Below are positions 4,419 to 61,554 of a stretch of DNA of 64,000 nucleotides, in pieces. The notes under the pieces are model-generated. The model had not been told where the DNA came from, searched no databases, and saw only the letters and a list, made by a program, of their open reading frames with translations. This DNA comes from Fimbriimonadaceae bacterium (GTDB taxonomy: Bacteria > Armatimonadota > Fimbriimonadia > Fimbriimonadales > Fimbriimonadaceae), in the NCBI GenBank assembly GCA_022843485.1, contig JALHNM010000002.1:94238-158237 (forward strand), in the 5' to 3' direction. The translations under genes were made by a program, and so were the position numbers. The first letter of the stretch is position 1. Every line of letters begins with the position of its first letter.

Positions 4419-5144
4419 TTACTCCTTGGTTTCGGTGTCCGCGGCCGGTTCTTCGGCGGCCTCGGGGGTCGGGGCGGCGTCTTCGGCCGCGGGGGTTTCG
4501 GGGGCAGCTTCGGCAGCGGCCTCGGCGGGGGCTTCGGCAGCAGGTTCCGGGGCAGCGGGTTCCGGGGTCGCGTCGGCTTCGGGGGCCGCAGGGGCCTCCT
4601 CGGTCTTGGCCGGGAGGGGCGAGCCCTCTGCGACCTTGTCCGCGACGGCTCCGATCACGCGGATCGGGTCGGCGTAGAGCGCCTCGATCGTCCCGACGAG
4701 TGTCGAGAGCGGGGCGGCGATAGCGCCGATGACCTGGGCGATGAGGATGTCACGCGGCGGGAGTTTGCTGAACGACTCGACTTGCTTGTCGCTGAGCGGC
4801 TTCCCGCCGATGAGTCCGCCCTTCACCACGAGCGCCTTGTTCGTCTTCGCGAAGTCCAAGAGGAGCTTGGCGATTTCGGGCTCGTGACCCGACCCGAGGA
4901 AGGCGACGGCCGTGGGGCCGCTGTTGAGCTCGGTGGGCAGGTTCTGGGCGTCGTCCCCGATCGCGATCCGGAACAGGGTGTTCTTCACGACGTGGAACTC
5001 GCCGCCCTTGTCCTTGAGCTGCGAGCGCAGCGCTTGGAGTTGGTGGACTTTGAGCCCGCGGTACTCCGCGAAGATCACCCCGGCTGCCTGGTCGTATTTG
5101 GCTTTCGTCTTTTCGATGACTTGCGCCTTTTCGGCAGTCGGCAT
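4419..5144 (-). CDS. rplJ: 50S ribosomal protein L10 with extended acidic P/E/A-rich C-terminal tail
   Basis: True start at internal Met [36 protein letters not shown] (L10 signature); the ~54 track codons upstream are leader read as protein; C-terminus has a ~65-aa PEA-rich low-complexity extension. Confidence 0.9.
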
Positions 5145-5420
5145 AGTTGTGGATCGCTCCTTCCGCCTGGGTAGGGAAGACCCCCCAGAACGGATCAAGC
5201 TCCCGTCCTTACATGGGAAGCGGGAGCTCGATCCAGCGTCCGACCCGACTGGGCCCGACTCGAAACCTCGTTGTCCACGCCACCCTCGGTCGGCCCGTGC
5301 GAGCACGGTTTATGGCCTGCGGCCACCGACGGTCTTCGGAGAGCGGACCGAGTCTAGCACGCCCGGGCCCGGGCTCGCGGGACCCCGCACTGCAGGCCCC
5401 GGCGGACCCGACCGACAATC
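5145..5420 (-). promoter_or_regulatory. putative rplJ 5' leader (L10 autoregulatory leader) and promoter region
   Basis: ~275-nt untranslated stretch upstream of rplJ; bacterial rplJL operons typically carry an L10(L12)4-binding leader. Inferred from position only; no structure checked. Confidence 0.3.
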
Positions 5421-15752: not shown

Positions 15753-15986
15753 CGTTGGTTCCTACCTTGCCTTACGTCGCTCGCCCCAATTTCCGACTGA
15801 AACGGAATACGGTCGCTCGGGCAACGAAGAGCGTCCTTGCCATTATATCCCGGCTCGTGCTCCCCTAGGAGCGCGGGACCGGGGAGCGGGTCCACGGATC
15901 CGCGCTCCGGGCGTCTATGATAGGGAAGCCGTGGCCAGCCCTCGCCAACGCCCCACCCGGGGGTTCGTCTGAACGCCCATGCCTCG

Positions 15987-16406
15987 GTGCGCGTGCGCAC
16001 CGATCGCAAGGGCTCGGCCCGCGGCTACGCGGGCAAGGGGTCGTTGGAGTTGGGGACCCGCCTCAGCTTCAGCGAGGCCGACGACCGCTTCGACCCCCTC
16101 CGCGCCCTCCTCCTGAGCCTTTGCGCCGAGCTGGCTGGGCGCCTGACGGCCGAGATGGCCCGCGCCCGGGCCGTCCTCGACGACCTTGAGATGGTCGCCA
16201 GGCTCTGGCTGGACGACCCCATGGCCGCCATCGGCGTCGTCGGCGCCCCAGGGGACGGCCGGGTGCGGCGGATCGAAGTGTCCGCCTTCGCGTCGACCCC
16301 CGACGGCGACCCCGTCCTCCAAGCCGCCTGGCGCCGCGCGTGCCAGGGGTCCGTCCTCGCCCGCTCGCTCTCCGCCGAGCTCGACCTCCAGTGCAAGTCC
16401 GTTTAA
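15987..16406 (+). CDS. possible OsmC/Ohr-family protein
   Basis: DPLRALLLSLCAELAG resembles the OsmC P-x-ELLLAALAxC first-Cys motif; second Cys in RRACQGS; weak assignment. Confidence 0.35.
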   Translation: MRVRTDRKGSARGYAGKGSLELGTRLSFSEADDRFDPLRALLLSLCAELAGRLTAEMARARAVLDDLEMVARLWLDDPMAAIGVVGAPGDGRVRRIEVSAFASTPDGDPVLQAAWRRACQGSVLARSLSAELDLQCKSV

Positions 16407-28106: not shown

Positions 28107-28202
28107 TTCGGGAGCGGTCCGGCGACCCCGCCGGACCGCATCCCCGACGAAACCGGCAACTTCGCAGAGGCGAGGCAAGGCTGGCCCTCCGAACATCCAT
28201 CT

Positions 28203-39506: not shown

Positions 39507-40160
39507 ATGCACAAGACCCTACTCATCGCCGCGGCCCTTAGCGCTGCCGCCCTCGCCAACGCCACCTACATCGTCAACGGTGGGTTCGAGACCGGGAGCC
39601 CGGGCACCATCAGCGTGATGCGCTCGCCCTGGTACAGCTTCTACAACTCCCCCGACACCCTCGACACCACCGGGATCAACGGGTTCTCGACCGTCGGCTA
39701 CGACTTCGACGGCGCCGGGGCAGGAGAGGGCACTGTCTTCGCCCGCACGATCAATATCGGCTCGTACATCGAGGGCTTCGGGCAGACGATGACGACCGCC
39801 ATCACGGGCGGCACCGAGATCACGATCGGCGCCCTCCTCGCCTCGGAGCTGAACCAAGGCGGCGCCTATAACGCGACCGTCCTTGGCGGCATCGACGTGT
39901 TCCTGTACGACGGCGTCACGACCCAGTTCGTCGGCGCCCTCGCTGCGAGCACGGCCGTCCGAACCTGGCAGTCCCGCTCGCTGACGTTCGTGGCCCCCAC
40001 CGGGACCTGGACGGACATCGTCTTCAGCGGCCAGGCCACCGCGGGCGACATCTCCCAGACCGCCATCGACGCCATCAACGTCGAAGTGGTCCCTGAGCCG
40101 GCCACCCTGCTCGCCCTCGGGGCCGGCCTTGCTGCCCTGGCCCGCCGCCGCCGGAAGTAA
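39507..40160 (+). CDS. PEP-CTERM sorting-domain protein
   Basis: Signal peptide MHKTLLIAAALSAAALANA; C-terminus VVPEPATLLALGAGLAALARRRRK (PEP motif, TM helix, basic tail). Confidence 0.8.
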   Translation: MHKTLLIAAALSAAALANATYIVNGGFETGSPGTISVMRSPWYSFYNSPDTLDTTGINGFSTVGYDFDGAGAGEGTVFARTINIGSYIEGFGQTMTTAITGGTEITIGALLASELNQGGAYNATVLGGIDVFLYDGVTTQFVGALAASTAVRTWQSRSLTFVAPTGTWTDIVFSGQATAGDISQTAIDAINVEVVPEPATLLALGAGLAALARRRRK

Positions 40161-40192
40161 GCGCCCCCGCCTCGGTTCGAGTCCGCGATCCC

Positions 40193-40225
40193 GACCCCCG
40201 GAAACCGGGGGTCGGGTCGTTGTTC
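40193..40225 (+). terminator. terminator-like hairpin
   Basis: GACCCCCGG-aaa-CCGGGGGTC followed by GGGTCGTTGTTC. Confidence 0.45.
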
Positions 40226-46127: not shown

Positions 46128-46804
46128 TGCGCGAGCGGGGAAGGGCTTTCACACTGATCGAACTCCTGGTGGTGATCGCCATCATCGCTGTGCTCGCAGC
46201 GATCCTGTTCCCCGTGTTCGCGAGCGCGAAGCTGGCCGCTCAGGCCACGTCGTGCGCGTCGAACATCCGCCAGATGGGGGTCTCGTTCACGCTCTACACG
46301 GGCGATACGGACGGCGTCTACCCCCTCGCCGCCTATCCGACCGGGGGCCAAGGGTTCGCGCTCTGGCACGACCTCGTCGATCCGTTCGTCAAGAACAAGG
46401 ACGTGTGGCTCTGCCCCTGTAGCCGGGTCAAGCCTCGGGACGAGAGCGGGGCCCCGACCTCGCACTTCGGCTACAACGTGCGGGGTCTCACGGACATCCG
46501 TCTCGACTTTGCCAACGCCGTCGGCCACCGGGCCGTCTCGGAATCGCAAATCGAACAGCCCAGCGAGACCGTGCTGCTCGTGACCGCCAAGGCGAGCAGG
46601 CTCTCGAGCTTCTGCGGCGACGACGGCAAGCTCCTGCTCTTCCCGAGCGACCCCGACGACGACTGCTGGGGCAGGCCGGACCCGAACGCGCAGGGCAAGG
46701 CCATCGTCCAATGGGCCGACCTTCATACCTCCCGGCGCGCGGCGGGGGGCTTCAGTGTCGGGGCCAACCCAGCCGACCGGTTCTTCGACACCCTCGGAGA
46801 TTGA
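46127..46804 (+). CDS. prepilin-type N-terminal cleavage/methylation domain protein with DUF1559 (H-X9-DG-like)
   Basis: MRERGRAFTLIELLVVIAIIAVLAAILFPVF (class III signal / pilin-like N-terminus); start ATG overlaps the stop of the upstream SBP (TGATG); the 129 upstream track codons are artefact. Confidence 0.75.
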   Translation: MRERGRAFTLIELLVVIAIIAVLAAILFPVFASAKLAAQATSCASNIRQMGVSFTLYTGDTDGVYPLAAYPTGGQGFALWHDLVDPFVKNKDVWLCPCSRVKPRDESGAPTSHFGYNVRGLTDIRLDFANAVGHRAVSESQIEQPSETVLLVTAKASRLSSFCGDDGKLLLFPSDPDDDCWGRPDPNAQGKAIVQWADLHTSRRAAGGFSVGANPADRFFDTLGD

Positions 46805-46877
46805 CCCCGGCAATAGTGCTGGAATCGAAGGAGTCGCTCGTAACCCTTCCAGGCGCTGCCGGTATCCTTGGCCCGCC

Positions 46878-48335
46878 ATGCCCTGTTCTTCATTGCCTCT
46901 AAAGCGGAGTTCCCGTTCGGCTCTCATCGGCTCGCTCCTGCTCCTCTCGCTCACCCTCCCGGTCGTCGGCGCGGCCCAGGGCCCTCCCCCGTGGCTCTGG
47001 AAGGCGAGCGGCTCGGACCCGGCGAACGCGGTCGGTTTCTCGGCGGACGGCACTGCGTTCGCGAAGGGCACGACCGGCTCCGACGTGCTCGTATTCGACT
47101 CGATCGAGGGTTCTCCGAGCCAGGTGCTCTCCGGTCACACGGGACAAGTCTTGGCCATCGCGTTCCCCAACAGCGGCGACGTCGTCGCCACCGGCTCGTT
47201 CGACCGCTCTGTTCGGCTCTGGAACTGGCGGACCGGCGCGCTCATCCGGTCGCTCCCCGGCCACTCCGCCCCGGTGAACGCCATCGCGTTCTCGCCGAAC
47301 GGTAACCTCTTGGCATCGGCTTCCACCGACCGGACGGTCCGCATTTGGCGTGTCGGGGATGGGGCTCTGCTTAACACGTTGACAGGCCACACGGACGCCG
47401 TCAATTCGCTGGCCTGGGGTTCTTCGAACGTCCTCGCGAGCGGCTCGAGCGACCTCTCGATCCGTCTCTGGGACCCGGCCACCGGGATTCTCCTGCGCAC
47501 GCTGACCGGGCACGCGGGTCCCATCAGCTCGCTCGCCTTCAACACCGACCTCTCTCAGCTCGCCTCGGGCTCGTGGGACGCCACGGTCAAGCTGTGGAAC
47601 CCGCAGACCGGCGACCTGTTCCGGACTATCCCGGGCCACACCGACTGGGTTCTCGGGCTTGTCTTCACTGGTGACCGCAGGACGCTCGTCTCGGGTTCGC
47701 TCGACGGCACCATCAGGTTCTGGAACCCGCAGGACGGCACACTGCGCAAGCGCTACGACGAGGAGACCGGTGCCGTGCTCGGCCTCGCCTTCGGTTTCGA
47801 CGACGCCCTCCTCGGCATCGCCGCCGAACAGTCCGGCGTGGCCCGGAACCCGTTCGGCGTACCGGACGTGCAGTTCCCGATCGCGTTCCAGGCCCTGCGC
47901 GGCCGAGTCGATCGTGGCGATCTCACGAGCCTGCGAGGCGATGACTCGAACCCGCTCCGCGTCTGCCGGTTCATCGTCCCGAACGACCCGCTGCGGGTCG
48001 TCGAGCTCCGGTACACGCTGCGCACGATCACGCCGAAGCCCGGCGCCCTCGTCGTGGCCGTCCGCTCGCGGGCCTCGGTCGGTGGGTTGCTCCAGCAGAC
48101 GCTCGAGCTGTTCGACTGGGCCGAGAACCGCTTCGACCCGACGGACGTGCTCCAGGGGAACCTCAACACGACCTTCACGAGCCGGGTCTTGACGGCCACG
48201 GGCGATCTGACCCGTTACGTCGACTCCAACCGGCGCATCCGGGTCCAGCAGACCATGCGCATCGTCGGCCCCATCCCGAACCCGAACCCGTGCCTCGAGA
48301 CGACGCTCGTCCGAGCCACGGTCACCCCGTCCTAA
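46878..48335 (+). CDS. secreted WD40-repeat protein with shared C-terminal domain
   Basis: Signal peptide ...LIGSLLLLSLTLPVVGAAQG; seven WD repeats (GHTGQVLAIAF ... SFDRSVRLWN etc.); last ~140 aa (47913..48332) homologous to the C-termini of ORFs 3228, 25356 and 36769. Confidence 0.75.
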   Translation: MPCSSLPLKRSSRSALIGSLLLLSLTLPVVGAAQGPPPWLWKASGSDPANAVGFSADGTAFAKGTTGSDVLVFDSIEGSPSQVLSGHTGQVLAIAFPNSGDVVATGSFDRSVRLWNWRTGALIRSLPGHSAPVNAIAFSPNGNLLASASTDRTVRIWRVGDGALLNTLTGHTDAVNSLAWGSSNVLASGSSDLSIRLWDPATGILLRTLTGHAGPISSLAFNTDLSQLASGSWDATVKLWNPQTGDLFRTIPGHTDWVLGLVFTGDRRTLVSGSLDGTIRFWNPQDGTLRKRYDEETGAVLGLAFGFDDALLGIAAEQSGVARNPFGVPDVQFPIAFQALRGRVDRGDLTSLRGDDSNPLRVCRFIVPNDPLRVVELRYTLRTITPKPGALVVAVRSRASVGGLLQQTLELFDWAENRFDPTDVLQGNLNTTFTSRVLTATGDLTRYVDSNRRIRVQQTMRIVGPIPNPNPCLETTLVRATVTPS

Positions 48336-48351: not shown

Positions 48352-49806
48352 CTAGCCGCCCCGCAGCAGCTGCAACACGCTCTGCGGGGCCTGGTTGGCC
48401 TGGGCCAGCACCGAGACGCCGCTCTGGCGAAGGATCTGGACCTTCGTGAACTCCGTCATCTCCTTGGCGAGGTCGGCGTCACGGATCTGGCTCTCGGAGG
48501 CCGTGATGTTCTCCTGGGCGACGGCCAACGAACGGCCGGTCGACTCGAGGAAGTTCTTCTGGAAGGAACCGAGGTTGCCGCGGAGGGCCGAGAGCTGGGA
48601 GATCGCGTCGTCGATGATCGCCATCGCGTCGCGGGCGCCTTGCGGCGACCGCAGGTCGATTGTCGAGAGGTTCTGTCCCGCGACGGCGGCCGTCCCGAGC
48701 CGAGAGGGGTCGACGCTGGGGATCGAGAACGTAGTTGCCTGGTCCGAGTTGCTGCCGATCTGGAAGCGCATGCTCCCCACGTTCAGTTGCCCGACCACGG
48801 TCGCGGCGCCGACCGCGTTGCCCGCCACGGTAACCACGAGCTTGTTCCCGCTCGGCGAGGTCAGCGTCAGGCCGTCGTCGTTCGGGCCGACCCCGCCCGT
48901 GAAGGTCTCCGTCTGGGTGCCCGAGGGCTCGACGGGGACGGTCACGTCGTAGACCGCGTTCGCCCCGACCGCTGGGGTGGCGCCGGAACCGTTGTTGAGG
49001 ATTGTCCCTGTCTCGAGGTAGTTGATCGGGTAGCGCGAGCCGAACTTCGTGGACGTGAGCGTGAACTGGAGCGGGGTGCCGGCGACCGTCGCCGAGACGC
49101 CGGTCGTGGCCGACTGCTGGTTGACCATCGCGAGCACGTCGTTGACGGTCATGCCCGCTTGGACCGTGAAGGCCTGGCCGTTCAGGACGAACGTGCCTGC
49201 GCCCACCGTCGCGCCCGTGCTGGCAAAGGTGGTCGCCAAGGCCCCGGTCGTCGTCCGGGTCGCTGCTGTGGTCTGGTCGATGGTGATGGATCCCGTCCGT
49301 ACCGTCGCGCCGTTGAACGTCGAGCCGACGAACGCGCTGGAGACGAGGTCGGTGCGGGTGACGGAGGTTGAGACCCCGGAGCTCCCGTTGAGCAGCCGCT
49401 TGCTCCCCCAGGTCGTCTGCTCGGCGATGCGCCGGATCGAGTCGACGACCGACCGCACCTGGGTCTGGTTCGCCTCGAGCTGTGCCGCGTCGATGGTCGC
49501 GGTGTTGGCCGAGTGGACAGCGAGGCCGCGGACGTCCCGGAGCAGGCGCGAGATCTCGTCCATTGCGCCCTCCGCCGTCCGTGCCATGTTGACCGCGTCT
49601 TGCACGTTGCGGCTCGCCTGCTCGATCCCCTTGATCTGGGACCTCAGGCCTTCGCTGATGATGAGGCCGGCCGGGTCGTCGGCGGCCGTGTTGATCCGCA
49701 GGCCGGTGGCGAGGCGGGTCACCGAGCCCGACATCATGGCGTCGGTCTGGCTCAGGTACCGCATCGCGGTCATCGCGGGGACGTTGGTATTGATCCTCAG
49801 GCTCAC
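48352..49806 (-). CDS. fliC: flagellin
   Basis: Conserved D0/D1 termini: MSLRINTNVPAMTAMRYLSQ ... GLRINTAADDPAGL at the N-end and LGSFQKNFLESTGRSLAVAQENITASESQIRDADLAKEMTEFTKVQILRQSGVSVLAQANQAPQSVLQLL at the C-end; variable Thr/Gly-rich middle. Confidence 0.9.
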   Translation of the reverse strand: MSLRINTNVPAMTAMRYLSQTDAMMSGSVTRLATGLRINTAADDPAGLIISEGLRSQIKGIEQASRNVQDAVNMARTAEGAMDEISRLLRDVRGLAVHSANTATIDAAQLEANQTQVRSVVDSIRRIAEQTTWGSKRLLNGSSGVSTSVTRTDLVSSAFVGSTFNGATVRTGSITIDQTTAATRTTTGALATTFASTGATVGAGTFVLNGQAFTVQAGMTVNDVLAMVNQQSATTGVSATVAGTPLQFTLTSTKFGSRYPINYLETGTILNNGSGATPAVGANAVYDVTVPVEPSGTQTETFTGGVGPNDDGLTLTSPSGNKLVVTVAGNAVGAATVVGQLNVGSMRFQIGSNSDQATTFSIPSVDPSRLGTAAVAGQNLSTIDLRSPQGARDAMAIIDDAISQLSALRGNLGSFQKNFLESTGRSLAVAQENITASESQIRDADLAKEMTEFTKVQILRQSGVSVLAQANQAPQSVLQLLRGG

Positions 49807-54848: not shown

Positions 54849-54897
54849 GCCCTGTGTTCGACGGGGGGCACCGAGAGACCGGTGCCCTCCGTGATCC

Positions 54898-54950
54898 CGG
54901 ACTGCGTCTGCTCGCAGACGCTCTGGAGTAGCGAGCTTGCTCGCTCGTCT
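54898..54950. terminator. double hairpin between convergent CADD-like gene and tRNA-Leu
   Basis: GCGTCTGC-tc-GCAGACGC followed by GCGAGC-ttgc-GCTCGC; same two-hairpin architecture as the 67-bp tandem-repeat unit at 56061. Confidence 0.4.
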
Positions 54951-54963
54951 CCCGTCCGATGAG

Positions 54964-55048
54964 TTGGTGGACAAGGTGGGACTCGAACCCACACGCCTTG
55001 CGGCACTGGAACCTAAACCCAGCGCGTCTGCCAATTCCGCCACTCGCC
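54964..55048 (-). tRNA. tRNA-Leu (anticodon TAG), long variable arm
   Basis: Reverse complement GGGCGAGTGGCGGAATTGGCAGACGCGCTGGGTTTAGGTTCCAGTGCCGCAAGGCGTGTGGGTTCGAGTCCCACCTTGTCCACCA: acceptor GGGCGAG/CTTGTCC (two G-U pairs), D arm GCG-GAATTGGCAGA-CGC, anticodon stem CTGGG/TCCAG with loop TTTAGGT, long variable arm, T arm GTGGG-TTCGAGT-CCCAC, CCA encoded. Confidence 0.75.
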
Positions 55049-55110
55049 CGAGGGCCGACAGGATACCAGGCGGGGCCAGGCGGCGACGGCGGCTGGTAGA
55101 GTCCTGATCC

Positions 55111-56082
55111 ATGGTGCTCGTCGTCGGCGGGGCCGGTTACGTCGGCTCCCACACCCTGCTCGCGTTGCGCGAGGCCGGTCGGGAGGCGATCGCGCTGGAC
55201 GACCTCTCTCGAGGTCATGAATGGGCCCTCCTCGGCGCCCCGCTCGTCCGAGCTGACGTGACCGACCTCGAAGCACTCCGCTACGTCTTCGGCCGTCATC
55301 AGGTCTCGGCCGTGCTCCACTTCGCCGGGCTGATCGAGGTCGGCGAGAGTGTGAAGGACCCCGCTGGCTTCTACCATGCCAACGTCCACGGCACCTGGTG
55401 CCTGCTCGAGGCGATGCGCGAGGCGGGGGTCCGCGACCTGGTGTTCAGCTCCACCGCGGCAGTGTACGGCGAGCCCGAGCACACCCCGATCCCGGAGATG
55501 CACCCCAGGAACCCGACGAGCCCGTACGGAGACACGAAGCTGGCCGCGGAACGACTGATCCAGGCCTATGAGGCTGCCTACGGGTTCCGGGCGGTGCGGC
55601 TTCGCTACTTCAACGCGGCAGGCGCCGACCCGGAGGGAAGGCTAGGAGAGGCGCACGACCCGGAGACTCACCTCATCCCCCGAGCCCTGCTCTCCGTCCT
55701 GGGGCGCGGGCAGTTCACGGTATTCGGAGACGACTACCCGACGCCGGACGGAACGTGTGTTCGGGACTACGTCCATGTGTGCGACCTTGCTGCGGCCCAC
55801 GTGGCGGCTCTCGACGCCTTGCGCCGGGGCGAGTCCGGGGCGTTCAACCTCGGGACGGGGCGAGGGGCGAGCGTTCGCGAGGTGGTCGAGGCGGTCCGGG
55901 CGGTGACGGGGGCCGACTTCTCACCTGGGGTCGCTCCCCGGCGACCGGGGGATCCGGCCGTCCTCGTGGCCGACCCCGGGCTGGCGGGGTCCGTGCTCGG
56001 TTGGCAGCCCCAGCGCAGCGACCTCCTCACCGTGGTCGAGGACGCTTGGCGCTGGCACCGGCGGAGTCTGCAAGCAGACTAA
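55111..56082 (+). CDS. galE: UDP-glucose 4-epimerase
   Basis: VLVVGGAGYVGSHT Rossmann motif and YGxxK-type catalytic region; final 7 codons and the stop lie inside the first copy of the 67-bp tandem repeat. Confidence 0.9.
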   Translation: MVLVVGGAGYVGSHTLLALREAGREAIALDDLSRGHEWALLGAPLVRADVTDLEALRYVFGRHQVSAVLHFAGLIEVGESVKDPAGFYHANVHGTWCLLEAMREAGVRDLVFSSTAAVYGEPEHTPIPEMHPRNPTSPYGDTKLAAERLIQAYEAAYGFRAVRLRYFNAAGADPEGRLGEAHDPETHLIPRALLSVLGRGQFTVFGDDYPTPDGTCVRDYVHVCDLAAAHVAALDALRRGESGAFNLGTGRGASVREVVEAVRAVTGADFSPGVAPRRPGDPAVLVADPGLAGSVLGWQPQRSDLLTVVEDAWRWHRRSLQAD

Positions 56083-56328
56083 TCCAGTGCGAGAGCACGC
56101 TCTCGCACTCCGGGCCTCGCTGCGCTCGCGGAGTCTGCAAGCAGACTAATCCAGAGCGAGAGCACGCTCTCGCACTCCGGGCCTCGCTGCGCTCGCGGGG
56201 TCTGCGAGCAGACTAATCCAGAGCGAGAGCACGCTCTCGCACTCCGGGCCTCGCTGCGCTCGCGGGGTCTGCGAGCAGATTGATCCAGGGCGAGAGCAGG
56301 CTCTCGCACTCCTGGGGCTAGGGTGTGA
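56061..56328. repeat. 4 x 67-bp direct tandem repeat, each unit carrying two hairpins
   Basis: Units begin GCGG at 56061, 56128, 56195, 56262; copies 1-3 near-identical, copy 4 degenerate. Each unit contains AGTCTGC-aa-GCAGACT and GCGAGAG-cacg-CTCTCGC palindromes. No unique spacers, so not CRISPR. Confidence 0.8.
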
Positions 56329-56833
56329 CGGGGACTCTGCCTTCGATGGCGATCCGGCCACCCTCGACCGCGACTCGGGTCAGCTCCAAGGCCAGCGGGA
56401 GGTCGGCGACGTCGAACACCGGGTTGAGCTGCTCCAACTGGCCCTCGACGAGCCCCCGGGCGACGGGGACGCTCAGATCGACGAGGTCCACGAACACCTG
56501 CCGCCCCTCCACGACCCTCAACCGGCACGTCAGAGTCGCCCGCACTTCGAACACGACCTTCGCCGTCGCCTCGATCTCGATCTCGCCGTCCGGCATCCGC
56601 ACGACGACGTCCCGGAGCATCCCTTTCGACCGGGCCTCCAGCAGGGACGTCACTCCCTCCGGCAGGATCTCGGCCGTGAGCCGACCCTCCGCCCCGAGCT
56701 CGAGCGCCCCCGTCTTGATGTCCACCGTCGCCGCCTGCGCCTCGATCACGATGTGCTCCAACCGTAACCCGAAGTGCAAGGTGAGCCCGTTCACCTCCGC
56801 GTGGAGGCGGTCGAGGGTGAGTCGCTTGCTCAT
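56318..56833 (-). CDS. DUF2993 (LmeA-like) family protein, short paralog
   Basis: Probable start MSKRLTLDRLHAEVNGLTLHF; beta-rich sequence resembling the ORF at 28382..29230; N-terminal 62 track codons overlap the tandem repeat and are probably not translated. Confidence 0.45.
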   Translation of the reverse strand: MSKRLTLDRLHAEVNGLTLHFGLRLEHIVIEAQAATVDIKTGALELGAEGRLTAEILPEGVTSLLEARSKGMLRDVVVRMPDGEIEIEATAKVVFEVRATLTCRLRVVEGRQVFVDLVDLSVPVARGLVEGQLEQLNPVFDVADLPLALELTRVAVEGGRIAIEGRVPVTP

Positions 56834-56855
56834 AACCTTCGGGTAGTGTGACCGC

Positions 56856-58292
56856 GTGAGCCCGCTCCTGCTGGCGGCCCTGGTCATGCGTGAGACGTCC
56901 GACCCACCGACCCTGACCCGCGAGTTCAGGGGGGTCTGGATCGCCACCGTCGCCAACATCGATTGGCCGAGCCGCCCCGGTCTCCCGGTCGCCGAGGCCA
57001 AGGCGGAGATGCGCTCCACTCTCGCGGCCCTGTCCCGAGCAGGGTGTAACGCGGTCGTGCTCCAGGTCCGGCCGATGGCCGACGCCCTGTACCGCTCGCG
57101 CCTCGAGCCCTGGTCGAGTTTTGTTTCAGGGCGCCAAGGGAAGAGCCCCGGCTTCGACCCGCTGGCTTTCGCGGTGACGACCGCCCACGCGGAGGGGATG
57201 GAACTTCATGCCTGGGTCAACCCGTTCCGGGCTCGCCACGCGACGTTCGAAGGGCCCGCCGACCCCACTCACGTCACCCGGCGGCACCCGGGGTGGGTCG
57301 TCGAGTACGGCAATCAAGCCTGGGTCGACCCCAACGCCCCCGGCGCCCAGGCCCATGCCCTCGCCGTCGTCGAGGACATCGTCCGGCGGTACGACGTGGA
57401 CGGGCTGCACATCGACGACTACTTCTATCCCTACCCCGTGCGCCGGGCGGACGGGACGAAGCTCCCCTTCCCAGACGAGCGCAGTTGGGCGAAGCGCGCC
57501 CCGGGCACGACGGACCGCGACGCGTGGAGGCGAGCGGCCTGCGACCGGTTCGTACGCGACCTCTACCGCCGGGTCAAGGCGGTCAAGCCCTGGGTGAAGG
57601 TGGGGGTGAGCCCCTTCGGCATCGCGCGCCCGGGCGTGCCGGAGGGGGTCACGGCCGGGATCGACCAGTACGCCGACCTCCACGCCGACCCGGTGAAGTG
57701 GCTTCGGGAGGGGTGGCTGGACTACCTGTCGCCGCAACTGTACTGGCGCCGTTCGGCTCCGCAGCAGCCGTACGACCAGTTGCTCGAGTGGTGGCTGGCG
57801 CAGGAACGACCGTCGCGTGTCCGGGTCTGGCCGGGTCTGTTCACGTCCCAAGTGGGTCCGCAAGGCGCGGACTGGCCCGCCAGCGAGATCGTGGCCCAAG
57901 TCGAGTCGGCCCAGCGCGAGGCGGGAGGTAGTGTCCACTTCAGCGCGAAGGCCCTTGTGGGCGATTGGGACGGTGTGGCGAAGGCCCTGGCGGAGGGGCC
58001 GTACCGAGACCCCGCGCTCGTCCCGACGTTCGTGGCCTCGGGCGCGGCACCCCCTCCGCCCCGGGTAGGGCAAGCCTCGGGCCGAGCGTGGCGGCTGGAA
58101 CTTGCCCCTGGGGGCACGGCCCCGGTCCGGTTCTACGTTGTGGCCCCCGAGGGCCCCGGCCGGCCGATCGTGACGACTCGGACGACGGTGGCGGTGCCGA
58201 AGGGGTGGACCCGCGTGCGGGTGGCCGCGGTCGACCGGGCTGGGCGGATCGGGCGGGCACGGGTCGTCCACCGGCCGGGGTCGGGCTCGTGA
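56856..58292 (+). CDS. glycoside-hydrolase-like family 10 (GHL10 / DUF187, YngK-like) protein
   Basis: FRGVWIATVANIDWPS ... CNAVVLQVRP ... ELHAWVNPF ... DGLHIDDYFYP, hallmark GHL10 motifs. Confidence 0.7.
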   Translation: MSPLLLAALVMRETSDPPTLTREFRGVWIATVANIDWPSRPGLPVAEAKAEMRSTLAALSRAGCNAVVLQVRPMADALYRSRLEPWSSFVSGRQGKSPGFDPLAFAVTTAHAEGMELHAWVNPFRARHATFEGPADPTHVTRRHPGWVVEYGNQAWVDPNAPGAQAHALAVVEDIVRRYDVDGLHIDDYFYPYPVRRADGTKLPFPDERSWAKRAPGTTDRDAWRRAACDRFVRDLYRRVKAVKPWVKVGVSPFGIARPGVPEGVTAGIDQYADLHADPVKWLREGWLDYLSPQLYWRRSAPQQPYDQLLEWWLAQERPSRVRVWPGLFTSQVGPQGADWPASEIVAQVESAQREAGGSVHFSAKALVGDWDGVAKALAEGPYRDPALVPTFVASGAAPPPPRVGQASGRAWRLELAPGGTAPVRFYVVAPEGPGRPIVTTRTTVAVPKGWTRVRVAAVDRAGRIGRARVVHRPGSGS

Positions 58293-60993: not shown

Positions 60994-61554
60994 ATGAAGA
61001 AGCTTGCTGTGCTGGCGCTCGTCGCCGTTTCGTCCTTCTCGTTCGCTCAGTCCGCCGTTTGGGACGGCGCCCTGACCTCGGCCGACCCCGTTTACAACCG
61101 AACAGTCGAGGACGGCAGCGGCCTGTCCGGCGTCGGCACGGCCGTCTTCTACGACGTCCAGCCGTTCTTCGTGCTGGCCACGGGTGAGTACACGATGGAG
61201 GTCCGGGCCCGGAACGCCGGCGAGGACACCTTCGCGTTCATCTACCGCGACCTCTTCAACCCGGGTGCCCCGACGGTCAACTTCGTCGGCGGCAACGACG
61301 ACTGGCTCGACTTCACCACCTCGAAGATCGGTGGTGGCAACGGCTCCCCGACCACGCTGATCCTCACTTCGGGCGTGCAGTACTTCGCGATCACGACGAG
61401 CTTCAGCAACGGCGACCAGTTCGCCTACGACAACAACGTCACGCCGCTGTTCCAGGGCGGTGAAGCCCGGCTCGGCATCGTTCCGGAGCCGGCGACGATG
61501 CTCGCGCTCGGAGCGGGCCTCGCGGCGATCGCCGCCCGTCGCCGCCGCAAGTAA
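60994..61554 (+). CDS. PEP-CTERM sorting-domain protein
   Basis: Signal peptide MKKLAVLALVAVSSFSFAQ; C-terminus IVPEPATMLALGAGLAAIAARRRRK. Confidence 0.8.
   Translation: MKKLAVLALVAVSSFSFAQSAVWDGALTSADPVYNRTVEDGSGLSGVGTAVFYDVQPFFVLATGEYTMEVRARNAGEDTFAFIYRDLFNPGAPTVNFVGGNDDWLDFTTSKIGGGNGSPTTLILTSGVQYFAITTSFSNGDQFAYDNNVTPLFQGGEARLGIVPEPATMLALGAGLAAIAARRRRK

Follow-up and report, generated by a model that had tools for sequence, protein, structure and literature searches.

Repetitive extragenic palindromic (REP) elements, the described repeats that come closest to the one reported here, have been surveyed in their tagged form by Di Nocera et al. (2013; PMC3733652). In that survey the stems are mostly 6 to 9 bp long and the loops 2 to 3 nt, often TY; sub-families with alternative complementary stem residues occur, and G-T pairs are frequent and were read as a sign of function at the RNA level. 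The elements lie preferentially downstream of open reading frames (ORFs), between convergent or co-directional genes, and flanking ORFs obtain stop codons from their termini. The phyla that the survey lists do not include Armatimonadota. Here we analyse a tandem array of hairpin-bearing units that separates galE from a convergent LmeA-like gene in an uncultured Fimbriimonadaceae bacterium of that phylum (contig JALHNM010000002.1 of assembly GCA_022843485.1, positions 94,238 to 158,237; this whole 64-kb stretch, 68% GC, is referred to below as the window). With moderate confidence, and on sequence evidence, we read the array as a cluster of a lineage-specific element resembling REPs and bacterial interspersed mosaic elements (BIMEs), amplified in tandem with a 13-nt spacer and likely to serve as a 3' barrier or terminator at the RNA level.

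The BIME-type array with which it is most usefully compared is REP325 of Escherichia coli, which consists of 12 palindromic units, alternating Z2 and Y, between yjdM and yjdN (bioRxiv 10.64898/2026.03.23.713779). REP325 is a partly Rho-dependent terminator as well as a stabiliser of the upstream mRNA, and transcription across it gives a ladder of truncated products; where REPs lie between convergent genes, their presence correlates with higher expression of the two neighbours (bioRxiv 10.64898/2026.03.23.713779). Clusters of REPs, stop codons derived from them and their arrays in 3' untranslated regions (3' UTRs) are already established, and the present locus reveals no new kind of biology. 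What it appears to offer is a clean, datable example of a small palindromic repeat rewriting a gene end.

Anatomy of the array

One tandem array stands out in the window. Tandem Repeats Finder (TRF) placed it at 56061-56312 with a period of 67, 3.8 copies, 96% matches, 0% indels and a score of 441, the runner-up array scoring 57, and alignment gave unit starts (units 1 to 4 are called u1 to u4) at 56061, 56128, 56195 and 56262. The array is better described as four 54-nt cores (GCGG...TCCGGG) and three identical 13-nt spacers (CCTCGCTGCGCTC), 255 nt in all (56061-56315), than as 4 x 67 nt. A first-pass annotation, made by a model from the sequence alone, had described a 4 x 67-bp repeat; its unit starts and its period stand, whereas the fourth full unit does not, u4 consisting of a core only. 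The same annotation had copies 1 to 3 differing at only a few positions and copy 4 decayed, and this is what alignment gave: there is one difference between u1 and u2, two between u2 and u3 and three between u1 and u3, while u4 differs from u3 at 5 of its first 54 positions, with homology lost after about position 54 (56315), 2 nt short of the stop codon of the LmeA-like gene. The spacer weakly resembles the galE sequence directly to the left of the array, with CGCTG in common. No further copy of the unit core was found in the 64-kb window at up to three mismatches (chance expectation 0.00 to 0.34).

56061..56315, + strand: tandem array (TRF, alignment, unit differences), occupying the whole galE/LmeA intergenic gap
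56061..56127, + strand: unit 1, with hairpin 1 at 56065-56080 and hairpin 2 at 56086-56109 (10-11 bp)
56128..56194, + strand: unit 2, with hairpins at 56132-56147 and 56156-56173; its CTAA gives TAA in frame +1
56195..56261, + strand: unit 3, with hairpin 1 held by a G-T wobble (A5>G) and a loop of GA, not AA; hairpin 2 at 56223-56240
56262..56315, + strand: unit 4, core only and most diverged; hairpin 1 with two G-T wobbles, hairpin 2 at 56290-56307 with loop CAGG
56115..56127, 56182-56194 and 56249-56261, + strand: the 13-nt spacer CCTCGCTGCGCTC (alignment)

Each unit is laid out as GCGG-AGTCTGC-AA-GCAGACT-AATCCAGA-GCGAGAGC-AC-GCTCTCGC-ACTCCGGG. The two hairpins per unit proposed at first pass are present in four of four units, although the exact forms quoted for them are not. 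Hairpin 1, AGTCTGC-aa-GCAGACT, is perfect in u1 and u2 only and is maintained through G-T wobbles in u3 (GGTCTGC-ga-GCAGACT) and u4 (...GCAGATT). Hairpin 2, GCGAGAG-cacg-CTCTCGC, or equivalently GCGAGAGC-ac-GCTCTCGC, is found in all four units with the loop cagg in u4, and in u1, where alone T28:A47 is paired, it reaches 10-11 bp. Stems measure 6-7 bp in hairpin 1 and 8 bp in hairpin 2 (10-11 bp in u1), with loops of 2-4 nt. The three stem changes inside the array all fall in hairpin 1 and all produce G-U wobbles on the + strand, which is the galE-sense strand; on the other strand they would be A-C mismatches. This asymmetry is the sole direct hint of a role at the RNA level. The whole array folds better than shuffles (z of -4.45 on the + strand and -3.9 on the - strand), as is expected of any tandem palindrome. 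The basic element, about 54 nt long, can be written as GCGG-[AG NNNGC NN GCN'N'N' CT]-A(A/C)TCCAGA-[GCG NNNGC NN GCN'N'N' CGC]-A(C/G)TCCGGG, two short GC-rich hairpins in a conserved scaffold.

A solitary inverted relative beside tRNA-Leu

The REP/BIME-like reading is drawn from another copy, single and inverted, that keeps the scaffold and carries alternative complementary stems, together with the match to the properties published for REPs (PMC3733652); the suggestion of a REP/BIME-like element made at first pass is supported on the same two grounds. The single copy, referred to below as the solo, was first picked up as a weak inverted blastn match of the unit near 54896-54940. The covariance model R2, for which the four array units were the only input, was run on the window and matched it over its full length with 37.1 bits (E about 2e-10, a rough value), compared with 12.4 bits in the opposite orientation.

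54889..54949, - strand: solitary inverted relative of the unit (sensitive blastn, then the array-only covariance model R2), with hairpins at 54930-54945 and 54904-54921
54965..55049, - strand: tRNA-Leu(tag), divergent from galE (ARAGORN, Rfam)

The solo lies 16 nt past the 3' end of tRNA-Leu, 1.1 kb from the array, and sits between tRNA-Leu and a convergent haem-oxygenase-like gene. Solo and array flank the divergent tRNA-Leu/galE pair, each following its own gene in the same relative orientation, and both loci occupy junctions of convergent genes and come immediately after a gene. Read on the - strand (54949-54889), the solo runs GACG-AGCGAGC-AA-GCTCGCT-ACTCCAGA-GCGTCTGC-GA-GCAGACGC-AGTCCGGG. 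Conserved between it and the array are the linker (TCCAGAGCG), the flanks (AG..CT and GCG..CGC) and the tail (AGTCCGGG). The exact linker CGCTCTGGANTAG, searched as a 13-mer pattern, occurs in the window in the array and the solo only.

Over 54 positions the solo is identical to u1-u3 at 34-36 and to u4 at 30, and within the linker at 9 of 10. Twelve of the solo-array differences make up six stem pairs changed on both sides, with zero pairs broken. The stem cells are paired in 94% of cases under the true structure and in 24-47% when the partners are slid, three of the cells being G-U. The solo's slot-2 core and loop, TCTGCGAGCAGA, equal the slot-1 core and loop of u3 and u4, and its slot-1 core (CGAGC..GCTCG) is one pair off the slot-2 core of the array. 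Whichever way the stem changes arose, palindromy is, as judged from these alignments, maintained inside a conserved scaffold.

A likeness to tRNA-Leu itself was considered and rejected, the common 8-mer GCAGACGC not exceeding chance. Between the haem-oxygenase-like gene and the solo there is also an 8-bp GC-rich hairpin, GGGCACCG-agagac-CGGTGCCC, at 54866-54887; it lies 18 nt past the stop codon of the haem-oxygenase-like gene and is followed by no T-run. At the same place in the locus of a distant relative described in the next section (L001), 3' of tRNA-Leu and 5' of galE, two copies of a different hairpin repeat, CCCCTCAgATGCgCCtGAgCGAATCTGAGGGG, are present at 5086-5131 and 5225-5262. Palindromic elements seem to be drawn to this site in more than one lineage.

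A new end for galE

The first-pass annotation had placed the array between convergent galE and DUF2993 genes and had given it the last seven galE codons and the stop codon. Pfam searches agree with the gene assignments, and the stop does come from the first copy; the codons are six (RSLQAD), preceded by the third base of an Arg codon. It is thus the array that encodes the GalE C-terminal tail past AWRWH, with the galE TAA (56080-56082) lying within u1. The coding extent of the LmeA-like gene is probably 56318-56833, 171 aa, with its start at MSKRL. Its stop codon (56318-56320) lies 2 nt past the last core, and the 235-bp gap between the two genes is entirely array.

55111..56082, + strand: galE (UDP-glucose 4-epimerase), 323 aa (Pfam Epimerase, 7e-59; homologues named GalE)
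56318..56833 (ORF 56318-57019), - strand: LmeA-like (DUF2993) gene, convergent on galE (PF11209 LmeA, 5.6e-9)

In each of u1-u3 the motif CTAA provides TAA on the + strand and TAG on the - strand, and because 67 equals 1 modulo 3 (3 x 22 + 1), these three units together put a stop codon in all three frames of both strands. The array also places eight stable hairpins in both 3' UTRs, and these, being palindromic, are able to fold on either strand.

Although the nearest GalE homologues are only 60-65% identical, the loci of four distant relatives have the order tRNA-Leu(tag)(-), galE(+), LmeA(-), GHL10(+) in common with the window, and in one of them (L010) the upstream DUF2779 and haem-oxygenase-like genes are kept as well. 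In L001-L005 and L006/L007 galE and LmeA share 25 nt at their 3' ends, in L008/L009 and L010 13 nt, and neither group has a spacer.

L001 6398-6422; L006 6969-6993; L008 10969-10981; L010 6969-6981: overlaps of the convergent galE and LmeA genes

In L008 and L010 the LmeA stop (CTA on the + strand) falls within the Gly-Tyr codons of the GalE tail. After the conserved AW.W, the relatives' GalE tails read (H/R)xHPxGY.. and that of the window reads HRRSLQAD, so that the window protein is 3-7 residues shorter than its nearest homologues and lacks the HPxGY tail. LmeA is 171 aa long both in the window and in the L001/L002 relatives and can be aligned through its last residues, its C-terminus being unaltered. 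Among 120 GalE homologues the length of the tail varies from 3 to more than 30 residues; since such tails are naturally variable, replacement of this one was probably tolerated.

Because the ends of galE and LmeA overlap without a spacer in the relatives, the array is taken to be a derived insertion. The parsimonious account is that an ancestor had overlapping convergent ends and that in this lineage a foreign sequence was inserted into the tail of galE, immediately outside the stop of LmeA, truncating GalE and giving it a new end. That the repeat had remodelled the gene end was already suggested at first pass, and the outgroups bear this out: they would represent the state before (convergent genes overlapping by 13-25 nt, a conserved HPxGY.. 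tail in GalE) and the window the state after (genes 235 bp apart, a new six-residue tail and stop, RSLQAD*). Two named Armatimonadota genomes (L011 and L012) have no galE/LmeA synteny and are uninformative on the junction. A possible relic of the old HPxGY tail in the right flank of the array (CAC TCC TGG GGC TAG) was discarded, the likeness being explained by the conserved LmeA C-terminus on the opposite strand. The ClpX encoded in the window is 84% identical to proteins of Fimbriimonadaceae/Armatimonadetes metagenome-assembled genomes (MAGs), and all named top matches are from Armatimonadota. The ClpP-ClpX genes and the ABC-transporter genes downstream of them are syntenic with a Fimbriimonadaceae MAG (L013).

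A sequence of events can be proposed on this basis. One copy of the element would have entered the galE 3' end where, judging from the outgroups, it originally overlapped that of the LmeA-like gene convergent on it. The insertion would have removed the old GalE tail, and the CTAA of the element would have provided the new TAA stop. The anatomy of the units suggests that replication slippage or unequal recombination then turned the element and 13 nt of the DNA next to it into a head-to-tail series of four, in which the inner copies presumably remained homogeneous while the outermost, u4, decayed. As a result, two formerly overlapping convergent genes would have been parted by 235 bp.

Comparison with described repeats

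The properties published for REPs (stems, loops, alternative stems, G-T pairs, location and supply of stop codons; PMC3733652) all hold here. The palindromes are small, with stems of 6-8 bp (10-11 in u1) and loops of 2-4 nt, and both loci are extragenic, the array lying between convergent galE and LmeA and the solo between the convergent haem-oxygenase-like gene and tRNA-Leu. Alternative stems are represented by the six pairs changed on both sides with none broken, where a swap of modules is possible, and G-T pairing by the three G-U cells. The closest likeness is to clusters of GTAG-tagged REPs, which are likewise short GC-rich stem-loops with 2-4-nt loops, extragenic and 3' of ORFs, reiterated in tandem as dimers with flanking DNA (PMC3733652). 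Written in tag orientation, the solo reads GTAG-CGAGC-TT-GCTCG, with GTAG directly 5' of the stem and a TT loop, and the array reads TTAG-TCTGC-TT-GCAGA; CTAA, the source of the galE TAA, is the reverse complement of this degenerate tag TTAG. Unlike GTAG-tagged REPs, the array has a degenerate tag and stems at the short end of the range (5-8 bp), the window holds two loci, and no REP-associated tyrosine transposase (RAYT) is present among 25 proteins scanned in 34-64 kb.

Tandem reiteration of the BIME kind is evident in the cores, each comprising hairpin 1, the linker AATCCAGA and hairpin 2 and each parted from the next by an identical 13-nt spacer. As in E. coli BIME-2 and REP325, a two-hairpin unit is reiterated in tandem with fixed linkers in a 3' UTR and without a U-tract, and the mosaic make-up of BIME-2 has a counterpart in hairpin cores that appear slot-swapped between solo and array. 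The resemblance ends at the sequence, to which BIMEs bear no relation, and at orientation: a BIME pairs related REPs that point in opposite directions, whereas the hairpins of the array are two different palindromes, both near-perfect (arms AGTCTGC and GCGAGAGC), and their stems do not allow an orientation to be assigned. REP325 also lies between co-directional genes, unlike the array, which lies between convergent ones. The dual role of REP325 as terminator and stabiliser nevertheless provides the best functional analogy for the array. By that analogy, the most likely role of the hairpins is to block 3'->5' exonucleases at the RNA level; they may in addition terminate transcription in part, probably with the help of a factor, and so curb convergent read-through. 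It may also be that the element is largely selfish or neutral.

Two other classes of modular repeat invite comparison. In the BOX elements of pneumococci, boxB, a module of some 45-70 bp, is tandemly repeated between boxA and boxC, and the whole has a stable secondary structure. The array is similar in being a modular intergenic element with one module amplified in tandem and with stable secondary structure, and dissimilar in having no terminal modules like boxA or boxC, in belonging to another phylum and in showing no sequence similarity. The mycobacterial interspersed repetitive unit-variable-number tandem repeat (MIRU-VNTR) loci, as Supply and colleagues are said to have described them, are intergenic tandem repeats of 40-100 bp whose first unit reportedly extends over the end of the upstream gene, which takes its stop codon from the repeat, with copy number expected to vary. 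They reportedly occur within operons, where the neighbouring genes run in the same direction, and contain small ORFs through which translation is coupled. The first unit of the array likewise overlaps the end of the upstream gene and provides its stop, and its copy number too would be expected to vary. Assignment to MIRU-VNTR was nonetheless rejected, since the flanking genes are convergent, the repeat supplies only the upstream stop and the period of 67 (3 x 22 + 1) is out of frame; hairpins, moreover, are the hallmark of the array.

Several further classes were considered and set aside. A CRISPR (clustered regularly interspaced short palindromic repeat) array had been excluded at first pass, rightly so, the three 13-nt spacers being identical to one another as in a plain tandem repeat. 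An integron attC site was ruled out on anatomy, and a coding repeat by a period not divisible by 3. Two of the functions that had been floated for the array are not supported. A small RNA locus finds no support, as a consensus scan gave no promoter-like site and Rfam, at both thresholds, no match: only two tRNAs reach the gathering score in the window, and the best model over the array, mir-8904, scores 21.9 bits against a threshold of 96.9. The canonical intrinsic terminator, a hairpin followed by a U-tract, fails because no T-run follows any hairpin of the array or the solo and because the array is not among the terminator-like sites found by consensus scan; such sites number 6 in 50-64 kb, compared with 6.1 in shuffles. 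Elsewhere in the window, perfect GC-rich hairpins of 11 and 12 bp stand just past gene ends at 28114-28139 and 40190-40216, the former without a T-run and the latter with a weak one only (TCGTTGTTC). Canonical U-tract terminators appear to be rare in this genome.

Alternative explanations

An array of this kind could be a local minisatellite, in which a 67-bp native piece of the galE 3' end was duplicated by slippage, with no family and no function, the solo being a by-product of local inverted duplication. We consider this unlikely, although several observations speak for it: there are two related loci only, 1.1 kb apart, no public collection that was scanned contains a match, the spacer and the left flank in galE have CGCTG in common, and the gradient of divergence (u1 = u2 < u3 < u4) is typical of slippage arrays. 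Against it, the genes overlap in the relatives, so that there would have been no native intergenic sequence to duplicate and the material must have come from elsewhere. Neutral decay would also hardly produce a solo that differs at 18-20 of 54 positions, 12 of which form six complementary stem pairs, and yet is identical in 9 of 10 positions of the linker. Even less probable, if taken as a complete account, is a bidirectional multi-hairpin terminator or insulator selected against galE-LmeA collisions and antisense read-through, its repeat nature being secondary. The array does span the entire gap from one convergent stop to the other, its eight GC-rich palindromic hairpins fold on both strands, and the solo too follows a gene, tRNA-Leu, by 16 nt. 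The missing T-run, and the failure of the consensus scan to flag any of the hairpins where its 6 sites compare with 6.1 in shuffles, weaken this proposal, although the objection is itself softened by the gene-end hairpin at 28114-28139, which also does without a T-run in a window of 68% GC. The relatives, furthermore, cope with overlapping gene ends and no insulator, and the folding energy of a single unit is no better than that of shuffles. The proposal does not compete with the REP/BIME-like reading throughout; it is compatible with it, in that termination and insulation are the function suggested for that element.

An assembly artefact, the copy number reflecting a repeat collapsed or expanded in a short-read MAG or a chimeric join, is very improbable. 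The assembly is of metagenome style, one NCBI contig of 445 kb is the only known source of the exact GalE and ClpX sequences, and short reads are poorly suited to sizing 255 bp of near-identical 67-mers. Against this stand the ordered substitutions that distinguish the units, the flanks, which on both sides run in frame into genes ordered as in the relatives, and the solo 1.1 kb off, which no such error would generate. Scarcely probable at all is a set of protein-binding sites (operators, or centromere-like or partition sites), with dimeric proteins bound to palindromes every 67 bp. Perfect palindromes of 16-18 bp with a 2-nt centre, regularly repeated, are what such a set would look like. The half-site sequences, though, change between solo and array while the symmetry is kept, as would be expected of a structural constraint more than of recognition by a single protein; the sites lie at gene 3' ends with no promoter-like sites, and no regulator or partition gene adjoins them.

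How far the family extends

A number of observations count against the REP/BIME-like reading itself, and most of them concern the size of the family. The two known loci lie 1.1 kb apart around the same tRNA-Leu/galE pair, and the high copy number and dispersal that define REPs are not seen within the 64-kb window. Palindromes of the form N3-GC-NN-GC-N3' occur elsewhere in the window at chance frequency (17 observed, 15.8 +/- 4.2 expected). A covariance model (R1) found no copy, with nothing below E = 0.1, in about 136 kb from the relatives L001-L014, which include the syntenic Fimbriimonadaceae locus L013. Exact and degenerate pattern scans returned no match in 185,579 representative genomes, JGI metagenomes and IMG/VR, collections that do not include the source genome; the first of these scans (for the core and for the two-hairpin architecture) predate the evidence on variable positions that the solo gave and are stricter than ideal. 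Blastn of the array against plasmids and phages gave no match, and a Pfam scan of 25 predicted proteins in the 34-64 kb part of the window detected no transposase family. The hairpins themselves give further reason for caution. The GTAG tag is canonical in the solo only, the array having TTAG (u1-u3) or TCAA (u4); the AG of the tag is able to pair with the 3' CT, so that it is not clearly unpaired, and hairpin 2 has no tag. A single unit folds no better than dinucleotide shuffles (z of -0.35 to -1.8). Lastly, the six seemingly compensatory pairs may stem from one or two swaps of hairpin modules between slots, which would make the solo a mosaic, and not from six independent events.

A more far-reaching version of the REP/BIME-like reading can be put forward tentatively. 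In it, the two loci would be the visible part of a larger, undescribed family of REP/BIME-like elements in Armatimonadota, built on a fixed two-slot scaffold with swapped hairpin cores, and the array would have been retained as a bidirectional insulator and mRNA-end stabiliser that uncouples convergent genes which overlap in all relatives examined. A literature text search returned no paper on such repeats in Armatimonadota. Should the family prove dispersed, elements of the REP/BIME type would be extended to this phylum, and the two-slot scaffold could be used to ask whether it is hairpin structure, not sequence, that is maintained.

A marginal third match to the models (R1/R2), at 15873-15918, reaches 18.9 bits with one hairpin only and shares the GCGG head and the CTCCGGGC tail. 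The surrounding gene-free stretch of about 430 bp (15753-16185) contains strong hairpins at 15869-15909 (GGAGCGCGG...CCGCGCTCC), 15984-16003 and 16017-16034 and has no Rfam match; it could be a leader, a non-coding RNA or a degenerate relative of the element. The two-hairpin stretch at 15984-16034, examined as a family member in its own right, has a different linker and does not belong to the same family.

Other genes of the window

Two small proteins with PEP-CTERM anchors are encoded at 39507-40160 and 60994-61554. A bacterial WD40 beta-propeller protein (46755-48335) adjoins a flagellin gene (48352-49806).

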